From Candidatus Roizmanbacteria bacterium CG_4_9_14_0_2_um_filter_39_13 (GTDB lineage: Bacteria; Patescibacteriota; Microgenomatia; UBA1406; GWC2-37-13): 34,786 nucleotides of DNA. Position 1 is the first letter of the stretch; each line of letters begins with the position of its first letter. Of the stretch, positions 4,356 through 15,828 are shown piece by piece. Position numbers and translations under genes: made by a program. Location: NCBI GenBank assembly GCA_002788865.1, contig PFSC01000156.1:1-34786 (forward strand), written 5' to 3'. The notes beneath the pieces were generated by a model. It was not told the origin of the DNA and did no database searches. It saw nothing but the letters and a program-made list of their open reading frames with translations.

Positions 4356-5789
4356 ATGAAAAAAAAAGATATCATTATTCTCGCGGTAATATTAGTTATT
4401 GGTCTTGCGTTACGACTGTATAAAATAGATACTCCTCTTGCGGATCTTCACTCATGGAGACAGGTCGATACCGCTGCAGTTGCTCGAAACTTTACCCGCG
4501 ACGGATTCAATCTTCTGAAACCGACATACGACGACCTTTCAAGTATTCAGACGGGCTTAGAAAATCCAACTGGAATTCGCATGGTAGAGTTCCCTATTTA
4601 CAATGCAGTTTTTGGATTTTTATACAAATATTTTCCAATTACATCTCTTGAAATATATGGGCGACTCACTTCGGCACTCTTTTCGCTGGTGACAATTGGA
4701 GTCTTATACTATCTTGCACTGAAAGAAAAAAGCCGAACTGCAGCTGTAGCGTCTGCAGGAATTTATGCAATTTTTCCTTTTTTTGTATTTTTCTCACGAG
4801 TTGTACTTCCTGAGTCGACTGCTGTTGCATTCATGATGTTATCGCTTCTATTTTTACATATTGGGCTCACAAACAATAAAAAGTCAATTACCCACCTTTT
4901 GGTTGGCTCTGTGTTTTTTGCGCTTTCCATTCTTACAAAACCGACAACAATATTTTATTCATTTGCTACAGGGTATCTCTTTATTCAGACATACAAATTC
5001 GATGTCTTAAAAAACTGGCGACCATATGTGTTTTTTCTCATTGGGCTTGTCCCGCTTATTCTGTGGCGCTGGTACATTCTCCAGTATCCAGAAGGTATAC
5101 CCGCAAGCGCATGGCTCATCACTCAGGTAAATACATTCGAAGGTCCAAAAGAAATATTTTTTCGCCCCGCATTTTTCCGATGGATTTTCATGGAGCGCAT
5201 TGGAACTGAAATATTTGGTATTTATGGAGTAGCGTTTGTACTATTTGGTGTTATCGGAAAGTATAAAAACCTCTTTATTCAAAGCATTCTCTTCTCGGGT
5301 CTCGTCTATCTTTTCACCTTTCAAGGGGGAAATGTACAGCATGAATACTATCAAACAATTCTTCTTCCAATGCTTGCACTCATGGGTGGAGTTGGAATCG
5401 CAAATATATTTGAACTACCATCAAAATATGTTCAAAAAATAGTACTGTATCCCACAGTATGTGTCGCAATCATTTTCAGCCTTGTGTTTTCGTTTTATAA
5501 AGTCAAAGACTTTTACACATACCCAAATGATCTTCCACAGATAGCAGCGCTCATCAAAACCTTCACTCTTCCTGAAGATAAAATCGTGACGGACAGAAGT
5601 GGAGACACAACTCTTCTGTACCTTTCCGACAGAAAGGGTGCACCTGCAGTTTATAAAGATATAGATGAGCTGAAAAATCTTGGATATAGCTATCTGGTAA
5701 CCTCGAATGAAGGATTAAAAACAGATTTAAAATCAAGAAATCTGGAAATAATGGTCGAGACCGATCTATACTTACTTGTAAAACTTTAG
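4356..5789 (+). CDS. ArnT/PMT-like (GT39/GT83-type) membrane glycosyltransferase
   Basis: 477-aa polytopic protein. The N-terminal LRLYKIDTPLADLHSWRQVDTAAVARNF resembles the first-loop motif of polyprenyl-phosphate-sugar dependent GT-C transferases. Confidence 0.7.
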   Translation: MKKKDIIILAVILVIGLALRLYKIDTPLADLHSWRQVDTAAVARNFTRDGFNLLKPTYDDLSSIQTGLENPTGIRMVEFPIYNAVFGFLYKYFPITSLEIYGRLTSALFSLVTIGVLYYLALKEKSRTAAVASAGIYAIFPFFVFFSRVVLPESTAVAFMMLSLLFLHIGLTNNKKSITHLLVGSVFFALSILTKPTTIFYSFATGYLFIQTYKFDVLKNWRPYVFFLIGLVPLILWRWYILQYPEGIPASAWLITQVNTFEGPKEIFFRPAFFRWIFMERIGTEIFGIYGVAFVLFGVIGKYKNLFIQSILFSGLVYLFTFQGGNVQHEYYQTILLPMLALMGGVGIANIFELPSKYVQKIVLYPTVCVAIIFSLVFSFYKVKDFYTYPNDLPQIAALIKTFTLPEDKIVTDRSGDTTLLYLSDRKGAPAVYKDIDELKNLGYSYLVTSNEGLKTDLKSRNLEIMVETDLYLLVKL

Positions 5790-5817
5790 CTCACATTGAA
5801 GATTAATTTCAATACGT

Positions 5818-7029
5818 ATGAATATCTTGATGCTCACCCCCTACCTTCCGTATCCTCCAGCATCAGGCGGACAGATTCGTACGCACTACTTGCTCAAATA
5901 CCTCGCGCGAAATCACTCTATTACACTTGTAGCACTCTATAAAGATGAAAAAGAAAAACAGTACGCAAAACACTTGAGCTCATATTGCTCTGAAATACAT
6001 CTATGTAAGAGAGCAAGTAAACCATGGAAGCCGAGTATCATCGCAAAAGCAGCTTTCACCAATCAGCCATTTCTGATTGTCCGAAATTATTCTAAAGAAG
6101 CAGCTGAGAAAATAAAAACTCTCCTTCAAGAAAGGACTTTTGATGTTATTCATGCGGAGACATTTTACATCATGCCACATATTCCGAAGACATCTACGCC
6201 GATTCTTCTCGTGGAGCAAACGATTGAATACAAAGTCTACCAACACTTTACATCGTCTCTACCTTCGTTTCTCCGACTTCCGCTTCATATCGATATCATT
6301 AAACTAAAACATTGGGAAAAATATTACTGGAAAAAGGCTGATCTTGTGGCAACAGTATCCGAGTTTGACAAAAATGAAATCAAACGATTGGCACCAAGTA
6401 TTGAACCAGTAGTCATTCCAAACGGTGCTGGAGATGAAATGTTTGTGAAAGATTTACCTGAAAAAATACTTTCCAAACCAAAGCTCTTGTTTCTAGGAAA
6501 CTTTTTTTGGTTGCAAAATGTCGAGGCAGCAACATATCTAATTGAGTCTATATATCCTCTTCTGAATGATCAGATTCCCAATATGGAGGTCATTATTGCT
6601 GGACAAAATGCTGAAGGAAAGATTCCCAAATCCCATAAAAAGAATATCAAGATTATCGATCTTGATCCTGGAGATGCACAAATCGTCAAAAAACTATATC
6701 GCTCAGCAACTCTTTTCATTGCACCAATTTTTGGTCCTGGTGGGACACGCCTCAAGATTTTGGCAAGTATGGCATCGGGGCTTCCCATCGTTTCGACAAA
6801 TGTGGGTGTGCAAGGACTTGGCATTATTGATGGTGAGCATGCGGTGATCGCACAAACTCCAGAAGAGTTTGTTTCACAGATCCAAAAAATTCTTTCTGAT
6901 CCTCAATTGTATAAAAAAATTCAAAAAAATGCATTTGATTTGGTGAGTGAAAAGTTCAGTTGGGAATCTATTGCCAAAAAACTTGAGAACGTATATCGAC
7001 ATATTATCCGAAAAACCATAAGCAACTAG
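5818..7029 (+). CDS. family 4 (GT-B, group 1) glycosyltransferase
   Basis: 403 aa. MNILMLTPYLPYPPASGGQIRTHYLLKYL N-terminus and GGTRLKILASMASGLPIVST C-domain motif. Confidence 0.85.
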   Translation: MNILMLTPYLPYPPASGGQIRTHYLLKYLARNHSITLVALYKDEKEKQYAKHLSSYCSEIHLCKRASKPWKPSIIAKAAFTNQPFLIVRNYSKEAAEKIKTLLQERTFDVIHAETFYIMPHIPKTSTPILLVEQTIEYKVYQHFTSSLPSFLRLPLHIDIIKLKHWEKYYWKKADLVATVSEFDKNEIKRLAPSIEPVVIPNGAGDEMFVKDLPEKILSKPKLLFLGNFFWLQNVEAATYLIESIYPLLNDQIPNMEVIIAGQNAEGKIPKSHKKNIKIIDLDPGDAQIVKKLYRSATLFIAPIFGPGGTRLKILASMASGLPIVSTNVGVQGLGIIDGEHAVIAQTPEEFVSQIQKILSDPQLYKKIQKNAFDLVSEKFSWESIAKKLENVYRHIIRKTISN

Positions 7030-9358: not shown

Positions 9359-10216
9359 ATGATAAATAACAATTTAAACTCTTTGGCAATTTTTGAAACG
9401 TATAAAATACGTAGGCACTATGACAAAAAAACTGAAACGTGGTATTTCTCGATCATAGATATTATTGCGATTTTAATTGAACAGGATAATTTTAAAAAAG
9501 CTCAAAGTTATTGGACAACTCTTAAACATCGTCTAAAAAAAGAAGGGAATGAGTCTGTCACAAAATGTGACAAACTGAAAATGTTATCCGCTGATGGAAA
9601 ATATTACAAGACTGACGTGGCAAATGTAGAGATCCTTCTTCGCCTGATACAATCAGTCCCATCTAAAAAGGCCGAACCCATCAAGCTCTGGCTTGCAAAG
9701 GTGGGTTATGATAGAGTACAGGAAATGAGCGATCCAGAAAAAGCACTGAATCGGAGCCGTGACTATTGGCAAAAACAGGGGCGTAGCAAGAAATGGATAC
9801 AACAAAGAATGATGGGGCAAGAAACGAGAAACAAATTGACGGATTATTGGAGCGATCATAACGTGAAAAAAGGAGAAGAATTTGCAATTTTGACAAATAT
9901 TATTCATCAGGAGTGGAGTGATCTGTCTGTAAAAGGTCATAAAAACTTGAAAGGTTTGAAAACTCAAAATCTCCGAGATCACATGAGCGAAGAAGAGTTG
10001 ATTTTCACCGCCTTGGCGGAACTTTCAACAAGAAGAATTTCAGAAACGGATAAAACGGAAGGGTTGGAAGAAAATAAAATTCCCGCAAGAAAAGGTGGAA
10101 AAATTGCCAAAGATGCTCGTATTGCCTTGGAAGAAAAAATTGGACAAAGTGTAGTCACTGGGGAAAATTTTTTGCCACATTCAAGAAATCAAAAATCATT
10201 TAAGAAAAACAGCTAA
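9359..10216 (+). CDS. Bro-N domain / DinD-like (DNA-damage-inducible protein D family) protein
   Basis: 285 aa. The N-terminal LAIFETYKIRRHYDKKTETWYFSIIDIIAIL fits the Bro-N pattern (F..x..IR...d....WF...D....L). The C-terminal KGLKTQNLRDHMSEEELIFTALAELSTRR...KGGKIAKDARIALEEKIG resembles E. coli DinD. Confidence 0.6.
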   Translation: MINNNLNSLAIFETYKIRRHYDKKTETWYFSIIDIIAILIEQDNFKKAQSYWTTLKHRLKKEGNESVTKCDKLKMLSADGKYYKTDVANVEILLRLIQSVPSKKAEPIKLWLAKVGYDRVQEMSDPEKALNRSRDYWQKQGRSKKWIQQRMMGQETRNKLTDYWSDHNVKKGEEFAILTNIIHQEWSDLSVKGHKNLKGLKTQNLRDHMSEEELIFTALAELSTRRISETDKTEGLEENKIPARKGGKIAKDARIALEEKIGQSVVTGENFLPHSRNQKSFKKNS

Positions 10217-10220
10217 CCAA

Positions 10221-10257
10221 TCGTTAATCACCAGCTTTTTTGATAAAATGAGAATGT
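10221..10257 (+). repeat. 37-bp direct repeat, copy 2
   Basis: tcgttaatcaccagcttttttgataaaatgagaatgt lies directly after the Bro-N/DinD stop and runs into the GTG of the restriction-gene fragment. Confidence 0.9.
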
Positions 10258-10390
10258 GAAACACAATGAAGCAACAGATACGGATTTGAAAATAATAGAC
10301 CAACTTAAAAAGCTTGGATGGAATCCCGGCGATACTCTGCTATACCAACAGGAATATACCCTAATGCCCGAACAACAAAAACAATTTTAG
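10256..10390 (+). pseudogene. 44-codon fragment resembling the N-terminus of a type I restriction R-subunit (HsdR_N-like) protein
   Basis: The translation VKHNEATDTDLKIIDQLKKLGWNPGDTLLYQQEYTLMPEQQKQF* resembles the NEA(E/D)TR..LID..L...GW opening of HsdR_N-domain proteins. It terminates after 44 codons, far too short for a functional domain. Confidence 0.4.
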
Positions 10391-10437: not shown

Positions 10438-11637
10438 ATGGCAAACAAAAATCTTACAAATGCAAAACGAGAAAAGAACGATGAGTTCTATACGCAGTAT
10501 TCCGATATTCAAAAGGAGATTGAGGCGTATCTTGAATATGACCCTGATACCTTCAAAGACAAAGTCATCTACTGCAACTGCGACGACCCGTTTGAGAGCA
10601 ATTTTTTCCGCTATTTTGTACTAAACTTCAAGCGCCTGGGACTTAAGCAACTTATCACCACAAGCTACAAACCATCACCTGTAGCCAACACGCAACTAGC
10701 ATTGTTTGGTGACGATAAAACGCTCAAACCCATCAAAGGTCGTCCAAAAATCACGGCCAACAAATTTATCATTAACGATGTTGGCGATATGGATGGCGAC
10801 GGTGCGTTTAACTTGCAGGATATTGCCATGCAGCTCAAGGCCAACAAAAATAACGAGTGGGCGCCACTGGACGGTGACGGCGATTTCCGTAGCCAAGAGT
10901 GCATAGAGCTACTTCAGCAATCTGATATCGTCGTCACTAACCCTCCATTTAGTTTATTTCGGGAATATATTACGCAACTTTTCGCGCACAAAAAACAATT
11001 TCTGATCATTGGTAATCTTAATGCAATAACCTATAAGGAAATTTTTCCAATGATTAAAGGGAATAAGGTATGGCTCGGGAACAATGCAAGAGTTAATGGT
11101 GGTGCTATGTTCTATGAAATTCCAGAAGCTATTGCAAATCTCGATCAAGTTCGCGAAATCAAAACAAATGAACAAGGAAAAAAAATATATATAACAAGAG
11201 TGCAAGGCGTACGCTGGTTTACAAATCTCGATCACGGACGATTATATCAACCAATTCCTTTAATGACCGAGGCAGATGTAATAAAGTTCAGCACTAATAA
11301 ACTGTTCGTGCACTATGATAATTATGATGCTGTCGAAATATCCCTAGTCAAAAACATCCCGAAAGACTATAACGGAGTGATGGGTGTACCAATCAGCTTT
11401 TTAGACAAGTACTCCCCTAAGCAGTTTGAAATTTTAGGAACAAGTGATAATGGTCTCGTTGATGATAAATACAAGAAAACACCAGGTTTAACAAAAAAGT
11501 TTGTTGATGATTATTATAAAGATGGTGGTACAGGAGCATATAAAGAAGGTAATCCGACAGCTGGATACTATGAAAATAACGTCGCCAAGATGGCATATAA
11601 AAGAATTTTTATCAAGCACAGAAAGGAGAAATTGTGA
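10438..11637 (+). CDS. N6-adenine DNA methyltransferase, EcoRI-methylase-like family
   Basis: 399 aa. NAKREKNDEFYTQ N-terminus, VIYCNCDDPFESNFFRYF, GDGDFRSQECIELL and the catalytic motif IV DIVVTNPPFSLFREY. Confidence 0.8.
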   Translation: MANKNLTNAKREKNDEFYTQYSDIQKEIEAYLEYDPDTFKDKVIYCNCDDPFESNFFRYFVLNFKRLGLKQLITTSYKPSPVANTQLALFGDDKTLKPIKGRPKITANKFIINDVGDMDGDGAFNLQDIAMQLKANKNNEWAPLDGDGDFRSQECIELLQQSDIVVTNPPFSLFREYITQLFAHKKQFLIIGNLNAITYKEIFPMIKGNKVWLGNNARVNGGAMFYEIPEAIANLDQVREIKTNEQGKKIYITRVQGVRWFTNLDHGRLYQPIPLMTEADVIKFSTNKLFVHYDNYDAVEISLVKNIPKDYNGVMGVPISFLDKYSPKQFEILGTSDNGLVDDKYKKTPGLTKKFVDDYYKDGGTGAYKEGNPTAGYYENNVAKMAYKRIFIKHRKEKL

Positions 11638-12800
11638 TTACAACACTCCAAAAATACACAATACATGATGTCGTAGACGGATTCGTTTATAACGAACTGG
11701 AAGGCAAAGGACTGTTTGGACTTGCGGGTAAGCTCACTATCCAGCCGGAATATCAGCGTAATTACATCTACGCCGGTGACGGTGGCAAGCGTGAGCAGGC
11801 GGTTATTGAATCGTTATTGAAAGAGTACCCCATAGGTCTACTGTATTTTAACAAGGTTAGTGATGACAAGTTTGAAGTCCTTGATGGCCAACAGCGCATC
11901 ACTAGCGTAGGGCGGTTTGTAACCGGTAAGTTTGCGATCAAAGACGCTAATGGACACGAACAGTATTTTAGTGGGATGGCTCAAAGCCAGCGCGAAAAAA
12001 TAATGAACGCGTCGCTACTAGTATATGTTTGCGTGGGTGATGAGCCTGAGATTAAAGATTGGTTCAAAACCATCAACATTGCCGGTGTGCCACTAACTCA
12101 ACAAGAAATTCTAAATGCTGTTTACTCTGGACCATTTGTCACGCTTACCAGAGAAGAGTTCAGCAACAGCAATAACTCACTTGTCCAAAAGTGGAGTGCG
12201 TATATTGCTGGCGACATAAAGCGCCAGGCATATCTAGAGTGTGCGCTGAACTGGGTGAGCCACGGTGAAATTGACGCTTATATGAGCAAGCACCGCCACG
12301 ACCATGATATTACCGAACTGAAATCACACTTTACAAAGGTTATTGATTGGATATCTGGCGTGTTTACCGATGTTGAGAGTGAGATGAGGGGCTTGGAATG
12401 GGGCAGATTGTACGAAACGTATTATAAGCAAGACTATGACCCAGCTGAAGTTTCTCAACAAGTGCGCGAGCTCCTCAGTAGTTTTGAAATAAAAGATAGG
12501 CGTGGCGTGTTCGAGTATATCTTGGGTGGTTCGCAAGATACCAAACTCCTAAATGTGAGGGTATTTGACGAACCTACTAAGAAGGTAGTTTATGCTAAGC
12601 AAACCAAAATCGCTCAGACTAAGGATAAGTCCAACTGTCCATTGTGTGCTATCGGTCACGATGCTAACCACGAAAAAATCTGGAGCTTCAGCGAGATGGA
12701 TGCCGATCACGTCTCAGCATGGAGCAAGGGTGGTGAAACAAATATTGAAAACTGCCAAATGCTCTGCAAGACGCACAATAGGGCAAAAGGGAATCGATAA
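11634..12800 (+). CDS. DUF262 (ParB/Srx-like NTPase, GmrSD N-domain type) fused to an HNH nuclease
   Basis: 388 aa. IQPEYQRNYIY and LDGQQRITS are DUF262 hallmarks. The C-terminus CPLC...DADHVSAWSKGGETNIENCQMLCKTHNRAKG is a canonical HNH. The GTG start overlaps the methyltransferase stop (GTGA). Confidence 0.8.
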   Translation: MITTLQKYTIHDVVDGFVYNELEGKGLFGLAGKLTIQPEYQRNYIYAGDGGKREQAVIESLLKEYPIGLLYFNKVSDDKFEVLDGQQRITSVGRFVTGKFAIKDANGHEQYFSGMAQSQREKIMNASLLVYVCVGDEPEIKDWFKTINIAGVPLTQQEILNAVYSGPFVTLTREEFSNSNNSLVQKWSAYIAGDIKRQAYLECALNWVSHGEIDAYMSKHRHDHDITELKSHFTKVIDWISGVFTDVESEMRGLEWGRLYETYYKQDYDPAEVSQQVRELLSSFEIKDRRGVFEYILGGSQDTKLLNVRVFDEPTKKVVYAKQTKIAQTKDKSNCPLCAIGHDANHEKIWSFSEMDADHVSAWSKGGETNIENCQMLCKTHNRAKGNR

Positions 12801-12813
12801 GTGAACCAAAATT

Positions 12814-14421
12814 ATGATCTCACAAATTAACATTAAAAATTTTCGGTCTATTAAAGAGCTGAGGTTTGAGCCCAATAGCCTTACAGCTCTGATTGGTCCG
12901 AATAGTAGTGGCAAAACTAATGTTTTGAAAGCAATCGATTTAGTTTTGGGTGAAGGGTGGACGACGAAAGCTAAGGTTGCAAGAGAACTCTTTAACGACA
13001 CAACTAAATCTATTGAAATAGAGATTGTTTTTAACACACCAATTTCTGTTCCGAGCAATAGCGGTTATCGAGACACTGAAGTTTCAAGTGTTGAACTCAC
13101 AATGTCGTTAATTCCTGAATTATCAGCCAGAACAACAATAAATGGAGGCAGTACTTTTTACGGTCAGGAAACATTTAAGAAGTTATGTCATTTCATTTTT
13201 ATCACTTCAGACCGAAATTTGTCATCTGAATTAAGGGTAAGTCAATGGACTATGCTTGGGAAGATGATGAGGCTAGTTTATGAGAATTATGTTATTCATT
13301 ATGATAACAATGAACAAAAACTAAAAGACGAATTTAAAGAAAAAATGTCTCTGGCAAAGGAGTTTCTGGAAGACGATTTCTCTCAAGATATTACTTTTAA
13401 AAAATTTGTAGATACCTTTAAAGCAAAATGTAAAGAAAATAGTCTCGGACTTGCTTGTGATTTCGATCCTAGTCTGGATATCTATAACCTAAATTGGTTC
13501 TATAAAACACTGCAAGTTCATGTAAAGGAAGATATTCCCAATAAACACTTCGATAGTGAAGAGGTGGGCGCTGGGATGCAGAACTTGTTGATGATATCTA
13601 TCTTTCAAACATATTCAGAATTAATGGGAGGAAAGGTAATTTTTGGTATTGAAGAGCCAGAAATTTATCTATATCCACAAGCACAAAGATCACTATACAA
13701 AAGCTTTATCGAGCTGTCAGAAAATACACAAATCATATATACAACACATAATCCCAACTTTGTAAGTGCATATAGGGCTGATGATATTCTTTTACTCAGA
13801 AGGAGCTCTGAACTAGGGACTTACAAACTGAAAAAGGATGACTATTTTAACAGTGAGAACGCTGAAAATGATGGTGTTAAATATAAGATATACACTCATT
13901 TCAACGCGGAGAGAAATGAGCTTTTCTTTGCAAAGAAAGTATTGTTAGTCGAGGGGGCTTCAGACAAAATTTTGTTTACCACTTTGTGCGAAGAAAAATG
14001 GAATATAGACTTGGATGCACTTGGAATTTCGGTGATATCCTGTAGTGGAAAAGGTGGAGTCAATTATTTTCTGGGGGTCTGTAACTTAATTGGATTAGAA
14101 ACTTATTTTGCAGTATGGGACGAGGATCCAGAAGATAAAAGTTACAAACCAGAAAAGGATTTTTTACCTAACGTTTTAAGTAATGGTACCGGCCTAGAGG
14201 TCGCGGTGAATTTAGAATCATTTTTAGGTTTATCTAGTTCCAATGATTCAGGGAAAGTAAAAAACGCACACAAATGGGCGCTCGATGTCAAATTCGATGA
14301 AATCCCAGACGAGTTTCAAAAGCTAAAGGATTTTTTGTCTGAGGAGATTCCGGATATCGACAATAGCGAAAAATTAGAAGAACCTATGGCGTCAAGTACA
14401 GAAGATGATATACCTTTTTAA
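12814..14421 (+). CDS. OLD-family ATP-dependent endonuclease (ABC-type ATPase + TOPRIM)
   Basis: 535 aa. Walker A GPNSSGKT, signature-like VGAGMQNLL, Walker B IFGIEEPE and H-loop TTHNP. The TOPRIM domain has LLVEGASDKILF and WDED. The acidic C-terminal tail ends EDDIPF. Confidence 0.8.
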   Translation: MISQINIKNFRSIKELRFEPNSLTALIGPNSSGKTNVLKAIDLVLGEGWTTKAKVARELFNDTTKSIEIEIVFNTPISVPSNSGYRDTEVSSVELTMSLIPELSARTTINGGSTFYGQETFKKLCHFIFITSDRNLSSELRVSQWTMLGKMMRLVYENYVIHYDNNEQKLKDEFKEKMSLAKEFLEDDFSQDITFKKFVDTFKAKCKENSLGLACDFDPSLDIYNLNWFYKTLQVHVKEDIPNKHFDSEEVGAGMQNLLMISIFQTYSELMGGKVIFGIEEPEIYLYPQAQRSLYKSFIELSENTQIIYTTHNPNFVSAYRADDILLLRRSSELGTYKLKKDDYFNSENAENDGVKYKIYTHFNAERNELFFAKKVLLVEGASDKILFTTLCEEKWNIDLDALGISVISCSGKGGVNYFLGVCNLIGLETYFAVWDEDPEDKSYKPEKDFLPNVLSNGTGLEVAVNLESFLGLSSSNDSGKVKNAHKWALDVKFDEIPDEFQKLKDFLSEEIPDIDNSEKLEEPMASSTEDDIPF

Positions 14422-14454
14422 ACTATAAATTACCAAATTATTCAAAGAAATTTT

Positions 14455-15741
14455 ATGAACGATATTATATGTCCACACTGTAAAAAAGTTTTTAAAGTTG
14501 ATGAAGCTGGGTTTGCGGATATCCTCAAGCAAGTCCGTGATCATGTATTTGACAAAGAACTACATGAACGATTAGAGCTAGCTGAAAAGGAAAAAGAGAA
14601 TGCTGTTAAGCTTGCAGAATCAAATCTTAAAAACACATTGCAGGCAGAATTGGCAAAGAAAGATAAAGAGTTGGCAGAGTTAAGAGCCGAAAATGATCGT
14701 AATCTTGCGGAGAAATTAGCAAAGAAGGAATCTGAGCTTGCTGAAATAAAGTCAAAACTTGATAAAACAGATGTTGAGAAGAAATTAAGTGTTACTGAAG
14801 CAGTAAAGAAAATTGAAAAAGAACGCGACAGTCTGGTTGGAGAGCTGAAAAGCAAAGAAACCGAGAAGCAATTGCTTGAAAAATCTTTACAGGAAAAGTA
14901 TTCCTCTGAACTCAAGACTAAAGACGACATTATCAAGATGAAAGATGATGAGATCGCCCTTCGTAAAGATATGAAATTAAAACTCAGTACCAAAATGGTG
15001 GGCGAGACTCTGGAACAGCATTGTGAGATCGAATTTAACAAGCTTCGCGCCACTGCCTTTCAAAGTGCCTATTTCGAAAAAGACAACGATTCAGCATCTG
15101 GAAGCAAGGGTGATTATATCTATCGAGAAACTGATAAGTCGGGTAATGAAATTATCTCGATCATGTTTGAGATGAAAAATGAAGGCGATGAAACTGCTAC
15201 CAAAAAACGTAATGAAGATTTTTTGCGAGAACTAGACAAAGATCGCACTGAAAAGAAATGCGAATATGCTGTTCTTGTTTCGCTTTTGGAAGCGGAAAAT
15301 GAATTATACAATACTGGTATTGTTGATGTCTCTCACAAATTTCAAAAAATGTATGTAATCCGCCCACAGTTTTTTATTCCAATAATAACTTTACTTCGAA
15401 ATGCAGCAATGAACTCTCTTAAATATAAGACTGAACTTGCTTTAGTAAAAAGTCAAAATATTGATATAACTAACTTTGAAGACAATGTTAATAAATTCAA
15501 AGAAGGGTTTGCAAAAAACTACGATCTAGCAAGTCGAAAGTTCAAAAATGCTATTGAAGAAATAGACAAAACCATTGACCATCTTCAAAAAACCAAAGAT
15601 GCCCTCCTGTCGTCAGAAAATAATCTTCGTATAGCTAATAATAAGACAGAAGATTTGACAATTAAACGGTTAACGCGAGGGAATCCTACAATGTCAGCTA
15701 AATTTGCAGAGCTTTCCGATTCCAATAAAACTATAGAATAA
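14455..15741 (+). CDS. DUF2130-like protein (Zn-knuckle, long coiled coil, C-terminal PD-(D/E)xK-like core)
   Basis: 428 aa. The N-terminus [24 protein letters not shown] is typical of DUF2130. About 170 aa of K/E/L-rich coiled coil follow, then GDYIYRE...[11 protein letters not shown] (D...ExK) and EYAVLVS, an RmuC-like architecture. Confidence 0.65.
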
Positions 15742-15799: not shown

Positions 15800-15828
15800 C
15801 CCCGAAGCAGAGCTTCGAGGAATTTTTT
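15800..15828 (+). terminator. putative intrinsic terminator after the DUF2130 gene
   Basis: ccCCGAAGC-aga-GCTTCGagg hairpin (15800-15820) followed by aaTTTTTT. Confidence 0.5.

Follow-up and report, generated by a model that had tools for sequence, protein, structure and literature searches.

A 34,786-nt stretch of DNA from Candidatus Roizmanbacteria (contig PFSC01000156.1), termed the window in its full length, carries a block of four genes at positions 10438–15741 of the plus strand, numbered genes 1–4 in their order along the locus. They encode an EcoRI-family N6-adenine DNA methyltransferase (MTase), a DUF262–HNH nuclease, an OLD-family nuclease, and a DUF2130 protein. An initial annotation, made from the sequence alone, had proposed that the four constitute one undescribed defense system. 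Our analysis instead favors, with moderate confidence, a compact, probably co-transcribed layered defense island of the Candidate Phyla Radiation (CPR)/Patescibacteria in which three independently mobile modules are stacked, and not one integrated machine. The domains are identifiable, their active sites are intact, the modules occur apart from one another, and in related loci they are exchanged at gene boundaries. The predicted restriction-modification (R-M) pair of genes 1 and 2 stood without OLD or DUF2130 genes in 58/58 neighborhoods, OLD genes related to gene 3 lacked the other three families in 35/35, and DUF2130 genes occurred mostly without them; all four families together were found in none of the loci sampled from the OLD (n = 35), restriction endonuclease (REase; n = 58), or DUF2130 (n = 80) side. 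Among the findings that the initial annotation had named as counting against its proposal were homologs that do not co-localize elsewhere and genes that are assigned to separate known systems, and this is largely what was observed. PADLOC matched gene 1 to a Type II MTase model, gene 2 to a Type II REase model, and gene 3 to Old; only gene 4 lacked a match. The locus can thus be broken down into known categories (R-M pair, Class 1 OLD nuclease, and island stacking) and should not be regarded as a new four-gene system; it consists of known kinds stacked in a defense island, plus one uncharacterized family, DUF2130, that is worth a direct test. The annotation had left a choice between a layered self/non-self system and an integrated machine. 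The former is close to the evidence, and the latter is unsupported because each part occurs separately.

Composition of the block and distribution of its parts

The open reading frames (ORFs) and junctions described in the initial annotation were borne out (Table 1). All four ORFs are co-directional, gene 2 overlaps gene 1 by 4 nt, and the spacers between genes 2 and 3 and between genes 3 and 4 measure 13 and 33 nt. The domain calls for the four products also stood, with Pfam matches and intact catalytic motifs, and three nuclease folds and one methylase are present. The hairpin and T-tract reported downstream of gene 4 were found (15803–15827) and probably act as an intrinsic terminator at the end of the four genes, though terminator-like sites in the region are at chance level (4 found versus 5.5 expected from shuffles); a promoter scan of the region likewise gave chance-level matches only. 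Co-transcription of the four genes is predicted from their spacing. The step in G+C content claimed for 10.4–12.8 kb is real: G+C at third codon positions (GC3) is 0.40 and 0.48 in genes 1 and 2, 0.32 and 0.31 in genes 3 and 4, and 0.32–0.39 in the flanks. This 10.4–12.8-kb portion is compositionally foreign.

Table 1. Positions of the four genes and of associated features in the window
Feature	Position	Strand	Basis
Gene 1: EcoRI-family N6-adenine DNA MTase, 399 aa, NPPF motif; modification partner in a predicted Type II-like R-M pair	10438..11637	+	Pfam, PADLOC, neighborhoods
Gene 2: DUF262 (ParB/Srx-like NTPase, DGQQR) plus PF01844-type HNH nuclease, 388 aa; predicted restriction half of the pair	11634..12800	+	Pfam, PADLOC, neighborhoods
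Gene 3: Class 1 nuclease of the OLD family, 535 aa, in which TOPRIM follows an ABC ATPase with dimerization insert	12814..14421	+	Pfam, PADLOC, PDB
Gene 4: DUF2130 protein, 428 aa, function uncharacterized	14455..15741	+	Pfam, motif alignment, AlphaFold2 secondary structure
Hairpin (CCCCGAAGC-AGA-GCTTCGAGG) at 15803–15817, then T-tract AATTTTTT; probable terminator	15800..15828	+	Hairpin/terminator scan
Bro-N domain protein, 285 aa; part of the island, outside the four-gene set	9359..10216	+	Pfam Bro-N 5.6e-6; PADLOC PDC-S13 1.6e-115, full length
37-nt direct repeat, left copy, ending right before the Bro-N start codon	9321..9357		92% identical to 10221–10257
37-nt direct repeat, right copy, immediately 5' of the 44-aa ORF	10221..10257		Repeat comparison
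44-aa ORF, identity not confirmed	10256..10390	+	Pfam, blastx

Genes 1 and 2 are predicted to form a self-contained Type II-like R-M pair. Gene 1 matched the Pfam family EcoRI_methylase (3e-120) and the PADLOC model MTase_II (2.5e-97), and its translation contains the NPPF motif. Gene 2 combines a GmrSD_N/DUF262 domain (1.4e-20) containing DGQQR with an HNH domain (1.7e-7) in which D-H...N...H-N and the CxxC/CxxxC cysteine pairs are present. Residues 6–387 of its product aligned with positions 6–371 of the 372 in the PADLOC REase_II model PDLC03418 (1.5e-81); secondary matches were to NsnA (2e-28) and PD-T4-2_A, with weak ones to HEC-05/06. NCBIfam held no model for genes 1, 2, or 4, and a PDB sequence search with the DUF262–HNH protein gave chance-level matches only. 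Homologs of the latter number more than 8000, and the best 120, 74–94% identical, come from many CPR lineages. Two CPR contigs with 89%- and 76%-identical copies of gene 2 have an EcoRI-family MTase gene directly upstream with the same 4-nt overlap; their remaining neighbors are wholly different and include neither OLD nor DUF2130. Upstream sequence is available in 55 of 58 IMG/VR loci, and in 54 of these a co-directional MTase gene immediately precedes the DUF262–HNH gene; OLD, DUF2130, AAA_13, or PDC-S46 genes were near it in none of the 58, and an ATPase gene followed it in none. The pair is also carried, without OLD or DUF2130, by a 9-kb Pediococcus plasmid, Enterococcus faecium optrA plasmids, and a Yimella plasmid. 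Strict pairing, varied neighbors, and plasmid carriage together are the behavior of a mobile Type II R-M system. The architecture of the nuclease is unusual: elsewhere, the combination of a ParB/Srx NTPase with HNH has been described in enzymes that depend on modified DNA (PMC4619093, PMC12707154). MTase-coupled DUF262–HNH nucleases are thus very widespread, extending to E. faecium resistance plasmids, and seem biochemically unexplored. On one such plasmid, pBN83-1 (L181; L-numbers label the comparison loci of the neighborhood analysis), a 63%-identical pair lies beside the resistance genes optrA and erm(A), and pairs of this type are common to all top-listed Enterococcus records, which are large E. 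faecium plasmids. The pair may be relevant to maintenance of the optrA plasmids.

Gene 3 encodes a Class 1 OLD nuclease with Pfam matches to AAA_15 (2e-37) and OLD-like_TOPRIM (3.7e-17). Its best PADLOC match was Old (2e-46), ahead of the GajA and AriA models, with NsnB secondary (5e-22). Among solved structures, the closest relative is OLD of Thermus scotoductus (TsOLD, 6P74; 2.9e-48 over residues 1–438), compared with 4.7e-12 for GajA. The Walker A motif GPNSSGKT (K34) and the TOPRIM residues E380-G...D436-x-D438 are intact and invariant across 37 OLD homologs. The exact protein recurs only in the same population and genome context, including assembly GCA_002793935.1. Neighborhoods of its subfamily, designated OLD-A, were sampled at 35 loci (L028–L062; one genome per species, 42–72% identity) that span Patescibacteria, Proteobacteria, Bacteroidota, Fibrobacterota, Planctomycetota, Bathyarchaeia, and others. 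DUF2130, EcoRI-family MTase, and DUF262–HNH genes occurred within 7 kb of OLD-A in none of these species-representative loci, and across the 35 there was no conserved partner gene. R-M genes, by comparison, lay within 3 kb in 20/35 and within 300 nt in 14/35, always on the same strand. They belong to Type I (HsdM/S/R), Type III (Mod/Res), Eco57I/MmeI/ISP (IIG/ISP), and AlwI systems, and the junction with the gene upstream, mostly an MTase or specificity subunit, often measures −4 to +12 nt. A scan of viral contigs with the OLD alignment returned one locus only. Class 1 OLDs provide defense as single genes (PMC12392090, PMC13261556), and a review describes their genes as not proximal to other defense genes (PMC10568477); an R-M association in more than half of the OLD-A loci contradicts this textbook picture of isolated genes. 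A separate observation concerns three loci (L022, 7635–9892; also L024 and L025) in which a stand-alone OLD gene is followed by a gene-free gap of ~2.2 kb. L023, otherwise syntenic, has a serine recombinase at the place of the gap, which may represent a degenerate gene or an element missed by annotation.

Gene 4 matched Pfam DUF2130 (8e-86; PF09903/COG4487) and nothing in PADLOC or NCBIfam. The family has been classed as PD-(D/E)XK (PMC3424549). Apart from that 2012 survey, literature searches for DUF2130, PF09903, or COG4487 returned incidental mentions and none within the defense literature. Its layout, based on AlphaFold2 secondary structure, is an N-terminal CxxC hairpin, a coiled coil of ~185 residues, a PD-(D/E)XK core (D220, E239, K241), and a C-terminal helical region; the D220...E239-M-K241 motif is invariant in 27 homologs. 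The AlphaFold2 model itself has a mean predicted local distance difference test score (pLDDT) of 61 and below 50 in the nuclease core (197–340), from an alignment of near-identical homologs only, and a PDB sequence search gave chance-level matches. The "Zn knuckle" of the initial annotation was reduced to a single conserved CxxC, with Zn_ribbon_4 below threshold (E 0.005). By analogy, the zinc hook of Rad50 comes to mind, since one conserved CxxC stands where a long coiled coil begins. The coiled coil varies in length among homologs (P0276, P0292, P0326, P0336, P0341, P0343, P0311; 498–541 aa), where longer variants contain one or two extra copies of a ~45–90-residue segment and the CxxC and nuclease core are unchanged.

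DUF2130 homologs exceed 8000 in number, and the closest 120 are mostly 85–93% identical and come from several named CPR lineages. Neighborhoods were sampled at 80 metagenome loci in an unbiased scan, with proximity to R-M and ATPase genes counted over 51 unbiased loci. An R-M or ABC-ATPase gene lay within 3 kb of DUF2130 in 12/51, nearly always upstream and on the same strand. The upstream genes included HsdR (sometimes overlapping), Eco57I-like IIG, AAA_13, superfamily 1 helicase-nuclease, HerA, OLD, PDC-S46, and RhuM, and ion channels and transporters were also among them. Only one of the 80 loci (L067) had an MTase + DUF262–HNH pair upstream, in diverged form and with the ATPase slot empty; OLD stood directly upstream in L066 only, and a weak OLD-like match lay 4.7 kb away in L063. 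The family was also found on 76 plasmids; it is solitary on those of Bradyrhizobium and Mitsuaria and precedes a TrlF ATPase on Lactococcus pCV56A. From these neighborhoods, DUF2130 appears to be a promiscuous 3'-terminal gene of restriction and ABC-ATPase operons. It has no PADLOC model and yet is repeatedly last in such operons, which makes it a cheap and testable defense candidate.

Module exchange and the relation of OLD to DUF2130

Exchange of modules was evident in sister islands, taken here as loci with DUF2130 copies at least 88% identical. They are laid out as a variable R-M system, then a variable ABC ATPase (OLD-A, OLD-B, AAA_13, or PDC-S46), then DUF2130. In the window, the EcoRI-family MTase and DUF262–HNH genes fill the R-M slot and OLD-A the ATPase slot. 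L149 has the same R-M system (REase 90% identical) and, in the ATPase slot, OLD-B, which is 22% identical to OLD-A (PADLOC Old, 1e-55). L150 combines the same R-M system with AAA_13 (PDC-S06, 3.5e-231), which we take to be the Pfam family that holds PrrC and RloC. L153 has an AlwI-type R-M system followed by PDC-S46 (1e-270), and L147 and L143 have Type ISP R-M systems followed by OLD-A copies 84–87% identical. DNA comparison of the window with L147 revealed 83% identity over 12813–15720, beginning exactly at the OLD start, and comparison with L149 revealed homology over the REase and DUF2130 genes and not over OLD, which is replaced; the breaks in homology coincide with gene boundaries. Outside this population, co-localization of the four families in the same order was found only once, in L149, with a non-orthologous OLD and in a different genomic context, and the closely related L150 arrangement has AAA_13 in its place. 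DUF2130 remains 92–98% identical regardless of its upstream partner, which argues against partner-specific co-evolution.

Several observations nevertheless weigh against treating the modules as independent. Adjacent OLD-family and DUF2130 genes, 2–62 nt apart and with OLD invariably first, recur with at least four distinct OLD lineages from CPR and Enterobacteria, and this recurrence exceeds what simple island co-residence predicts. The cases are the window, L147, and L143 (OLD-A); L149 (OLD-B); L066 (a third variant); L156, L158, L160, and L165 (a lineage with 59% GC); L157 and L169 (a lineage with 52% GC, Enterobacteria); and, also in Enterobacteria, L178 (Citrobacter plasmid NZ_CP056645.1) and L183 (Escherichia coli H5 chromosome). 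In two OLD-A loci (L033, 6279–7025; L034, 3311–4066), a 248-aa PDDEXK_1 nuclease gene begins 12–17 nt after OLD, such that a different PD-(D/E)XK family takes the position of DUF2130 in the window. The tight spacing and single terminator, which suggest one transcript, would fit one functional unit too. No empty site was found (an exact look-up of the FemAB protein encoded downstream gave the island in every contig), so the island is fixed in this population and separate gain of each module in this genome was not directly observed. Finally, the literature search found no paper on a biochemically characterized MTase-linked DUF262–HNH enzyme.

The adjacency could mean that the locus holds two systems, a Type II R-M pair and a separate two-gene OLD + DUF2130 system that lodges preferentially beside R-M genes. 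OLD would then sense or license, and DUF2130 would act as co-effector or adaptor, comparable to HEC-02, which requires both an ABC ATPase and a PD-(D/E)xK partner (preprint 10.1101/2024.01.29.577857). Consistent with this, the fixed order and strand are kept in several CPR, 59% GC, and enterobacterial settings, the window and L147 have OLD and DUF2130 in common as one 2.9-kb block, and the nuclease genes of L033 and L034 offer a parallel. The adjacency is, however, absent in most OLD loci and most DUF2130 loci: it is missing from all 35 OLD-A loci and was met once in the 80 metagenome loci. An E. coli prophage carries a related OLD gene by itself, and Class 1 OLDs function alone. DUF2130 is found equally after AAA_13, HsdR, and IIG genes and is often alone, and its OLD-B-linked and PDC-S46-linked copies are 98.4% identical, without co-variation of the partners. 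We consider two separate systems, with the division of labor described, to be unlikely. Functional coupling of OLD and DUF2130 has a similarly low but appreciable probability, and would be facultative at best.

The enterobacterial pairs have a setting of their own. In E. coli, the pair was present in 2/5426 genomes and directly precedes a complete Type III R-M system, as it does on the Citrobacter plasmid. In both L178 and L183, OLD and DUF2130 (2 nt apart) are situated between an HKD + Snf2 helicase/DUF4391 pair and the Type III genes, with a WYL regulator upstream and a DUF262 protein downstream of the cluster, which may be a larger composite system.

An HTH_17/MerR-like segment, 80–88% identical in DNA, forms the shared left border of sister islands (L149, 5487–5654; L153, 32–199; L150, ~2148–2376; L080, ~5726–5950; L143, 2215–2382 and 4880–5047), with unrelated cargo between it and DUF2130 on the right, where Hydrolase_4 may also be found (L149, L153). 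These common borders appear hotspot-like. They raise the possibility that DUF2130, instead of being a defense effector, serves as a backbone gene or in recombination: it would be a coiled-coil nuclease resembling RmuC and would mark the conserved right border of a mobile defense hotspot in which recombination swaps the R-M and ATPase cargo; its high identity over many CPR lineages, the serine recombinases nearby, and its frequent solitary occurrence amid housekeeping genes would agree. The HTH_17 border is absent from the window, where no recombinase or att-like repeat flanking the island was found either, and the restriction or ATPase genes that precede DUF2130 in other phyla overlap it or end 2–10 nt before it, in what looks like an operon and not a border. 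A border role is therefore improbable.

One integrated four-component machine, in which MTase-marked self DNA, a DUF262–HNH sensor-nuclease, OLD, and DUF2130 are obligate partners, would account for the tight packing, single terminator, and single orientation, and for the same family order in the different genomic context of L149. Every component overwhelmingly occurs without the others, however, the OLD slot is held by another lineage (L149), by AAA_13 (L150), or by nothing (L067), and the R-M pair differs in composition from the OLD/DUF2130 pair, which leaves this explanation with very little probability. A Menshen-like tripartite system of genes 2–4 (NsnA-like DUF262 sensor, NsnB-like ABC ATPase transducer, and NsnC-like nuclease effector) is hardly credible: the secondary PADLOC matches and the order DUF262, ABC ATPase, third gene agree with the Menshen rule (PMC12065111), but gene 2 is far closer to REase_II over its full length, has its own HNH, and is always MTase-linked, gene 3 carries TOPRIM where NsnB has DUF3696, gene 4 matches neither the inPIN domain nor NsnC, and no ATPase follows the DUF262–HNH gene in any of the 58 loci.

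The layered island that we favor suggests a working model, whose activities and triggers are read from sequence and analogy. In the first layer, the MTase would mark host DNA with N6-methyladenine (m6A) and the DUF262–HNH protein would cut DNA without the mark, probably using nucleoside triphosphate (NTP) binding or hydrolysis by its ParB-like domain, as GmrSD and BrxU do. In the second layer, OLD would be an ATP-controlled, self-sacrificing nuclease and most likely a second-line effector. If it behaves like P2 Old, PARIS, and PrrC, its trigger would be a disturbance of the cell by infection or by anti-restriction activity, and it would cleave nucleic acid, possibly tRNA. For P2 Old, activation in cells and cleavage of tRNA anticodon stems have been reported (PMC12445682), and the OLD of Vibrio cholerae nicks DNA (PMC12392090). 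The habitual place of OLD in R-M operons suggests a PrrC/PARIS-like backup role, and independent defense genes embedded in R-M operons are an established pattern (preprint 10.1101/2024.01.29.577857). DUF2130 would probably contribute extra nuclease activity or have a general role at DNA ends or sites of damage; the combination of a coiled coil with an intact D...ExK site suggests a dimeric nuclease directed at DNA. A wider proposal is offered only tentatively as a whole. DUF2130 may be an undescribed defense nuclease or accessory, with a dimerizing N-terminal CxxC, coiled coil, and PD-(D/E)XK core, that plugs into ABC-ATPase genes (OLD, AAA_13, PDC-S46) and restriction operons; OLD and DUF2130 may be a two-gene R-M-associated "guard" distributed from CPR to Enterobacteria; and MTase-linked DUF262–HNH proteins may be a large uncharacterized class of NTP-using, methylation-blocked REases derived from the GmrSD fold.

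Flanks and the upstream part of the island

The initial annotation had described the flanks as conserved cell-envelope genes. By Pfam, the upstream flank contains three genes for GT4 glycosyltransferases, and the downstream flank contains those for FemAB and Lon. Other than one tRNA, no RNA families were found in the window. The Bro-N gene reported upstream is also real, and its full-length match to PDC-S13, a PADLOC single-gene defense candidate, indicates that the island reaches further upstream than the reported four genes. Two copies of a 37-nt direct repeat bracket this gene exactly, and both finish ...AATGT before a start codon (ATG 9359; GTG 10256); the repeat may represent a leader that was duplicated or the scar of a cassette insertion. 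The second copy precedes a 44-aa ORF that had been taken for a restriction-gene fragment. Its assignment to hsdR was rejected, since blastx against three HsdR proteins gave E = 5 and there was no Pfam match at E ≤ 1.

A Bro-N copy 68% identical to that of the window was found 1.5 kb downstream of DUF2130 in L065, a locus from the same sample series as L001. There (386–2499; 4674–7004), a PDC-S46-like ATPase with 65% identity to that of L153 is followed by an EcoEI-type HsdR, which overlaps the start of DUF2130 by 4 nt, and then by Bro-N, in another permutation of the same module set.

Comparison with known defense systems

The initial annotation could not fit the set to Gabija, PARIS, retron-linked OLD, or stand-alone GmrSD, and we agree; Menshen, PD-T4-2, Gabija, PARIS, and retron readings were all rejected on absent partner domains and neighborhood statistics. 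The GajA nuclease of Gabija belongs to the OLD family and likewise joins an ATPase to TOPRIM, and gene 3 matches many GajA models, but no UvrD-like GajB adjoins it and its similarity to GajA (Class 2) is far lower than to TsOLD. PARIS, an anti-restriction sensor, pairs AriA with a separate AriB (DUF4435 TOPRIM), whereas the TOPRIM of gene 3 is fused to the ATPase and there is no DUF4435 gene. Menshen (NsnABC) has the same succession of DUF262 protein, OLD-type ABC ATPase, and nuclease-like gene, with weak NsnA and NsnB matches in the window; it differs in its DUF3696 and inPIN domains, neither of which occurs in genes 2–4, and in that the DUF262 protein here has HNH and an obligate MTase and the trio does not co-occur elsewhere. 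HEC-02 resembles genes 3 and 4 in that its operon places a PD-(D/E)XK-fold gene after an ABC-type ATPase gene. Its nuclease is NERD, however, while DUF2130 is not NERD and has a long coiled coil, the OLD partner has its own TOPRIM, and the pairing is facultative.

Genes 1 and 2 resemble Type II R-M systems in the succession of MTase and nuclease with a 4-nt overlap, in strict pairing over phyla and mobile elements, in carriage on small plasmids, and in their PADLOC matches; the M.EcoRI family comprises gamma-class m6A MTases. The difference lies in gene 2, a ParB/Srx-type DUF262 NTPase with HNH of a kind otherwise known from Type IV enzymes (GmrSD, BrxU, SspE). GmrSD-type enzymes combine DUF262 with DUF1524 and act alone on modified DNA, whereas gene 2 has a PF01844 HNH, no DUF1524 match, and an MTase link. 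Gene 3 shares the ABC ATPase, TOPRIM, and intact Walker A and metal residues of Class 1 OLDs (P2 Old, TsOLD, V. cholerae OLD, and E. coli YbjD). Like them, it has no adjacent UvrD-like helicase, reverse transcriptase or non-coding RNA, or DUF4435 partner, and its neighbors are the REase and DUF2130. It departs from the isolated-gene criterion of the review (PMC10568477), which is descriptive and not mechanistic, by its position 13 nt after the REase gene.

That position brings gene 3 close to the backups embedded in R-M systems (PrrC in EcoprrI, RloC, and the HEC/PDC candidates found through "guilt by embedding"). Gene 3 is not an AAA_13/PrrC homolog, and control or sensing of R-M by gene 3 would be an analogy only. 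The likeness lies in an ABC-ATPase-nuclease that is co-directional within or beside a restriction operon, in an OLD slot that is interchangeable with AAA_13 and PDC-S46 in sister loci, and in the second-line logic that such an arrangement suggests.

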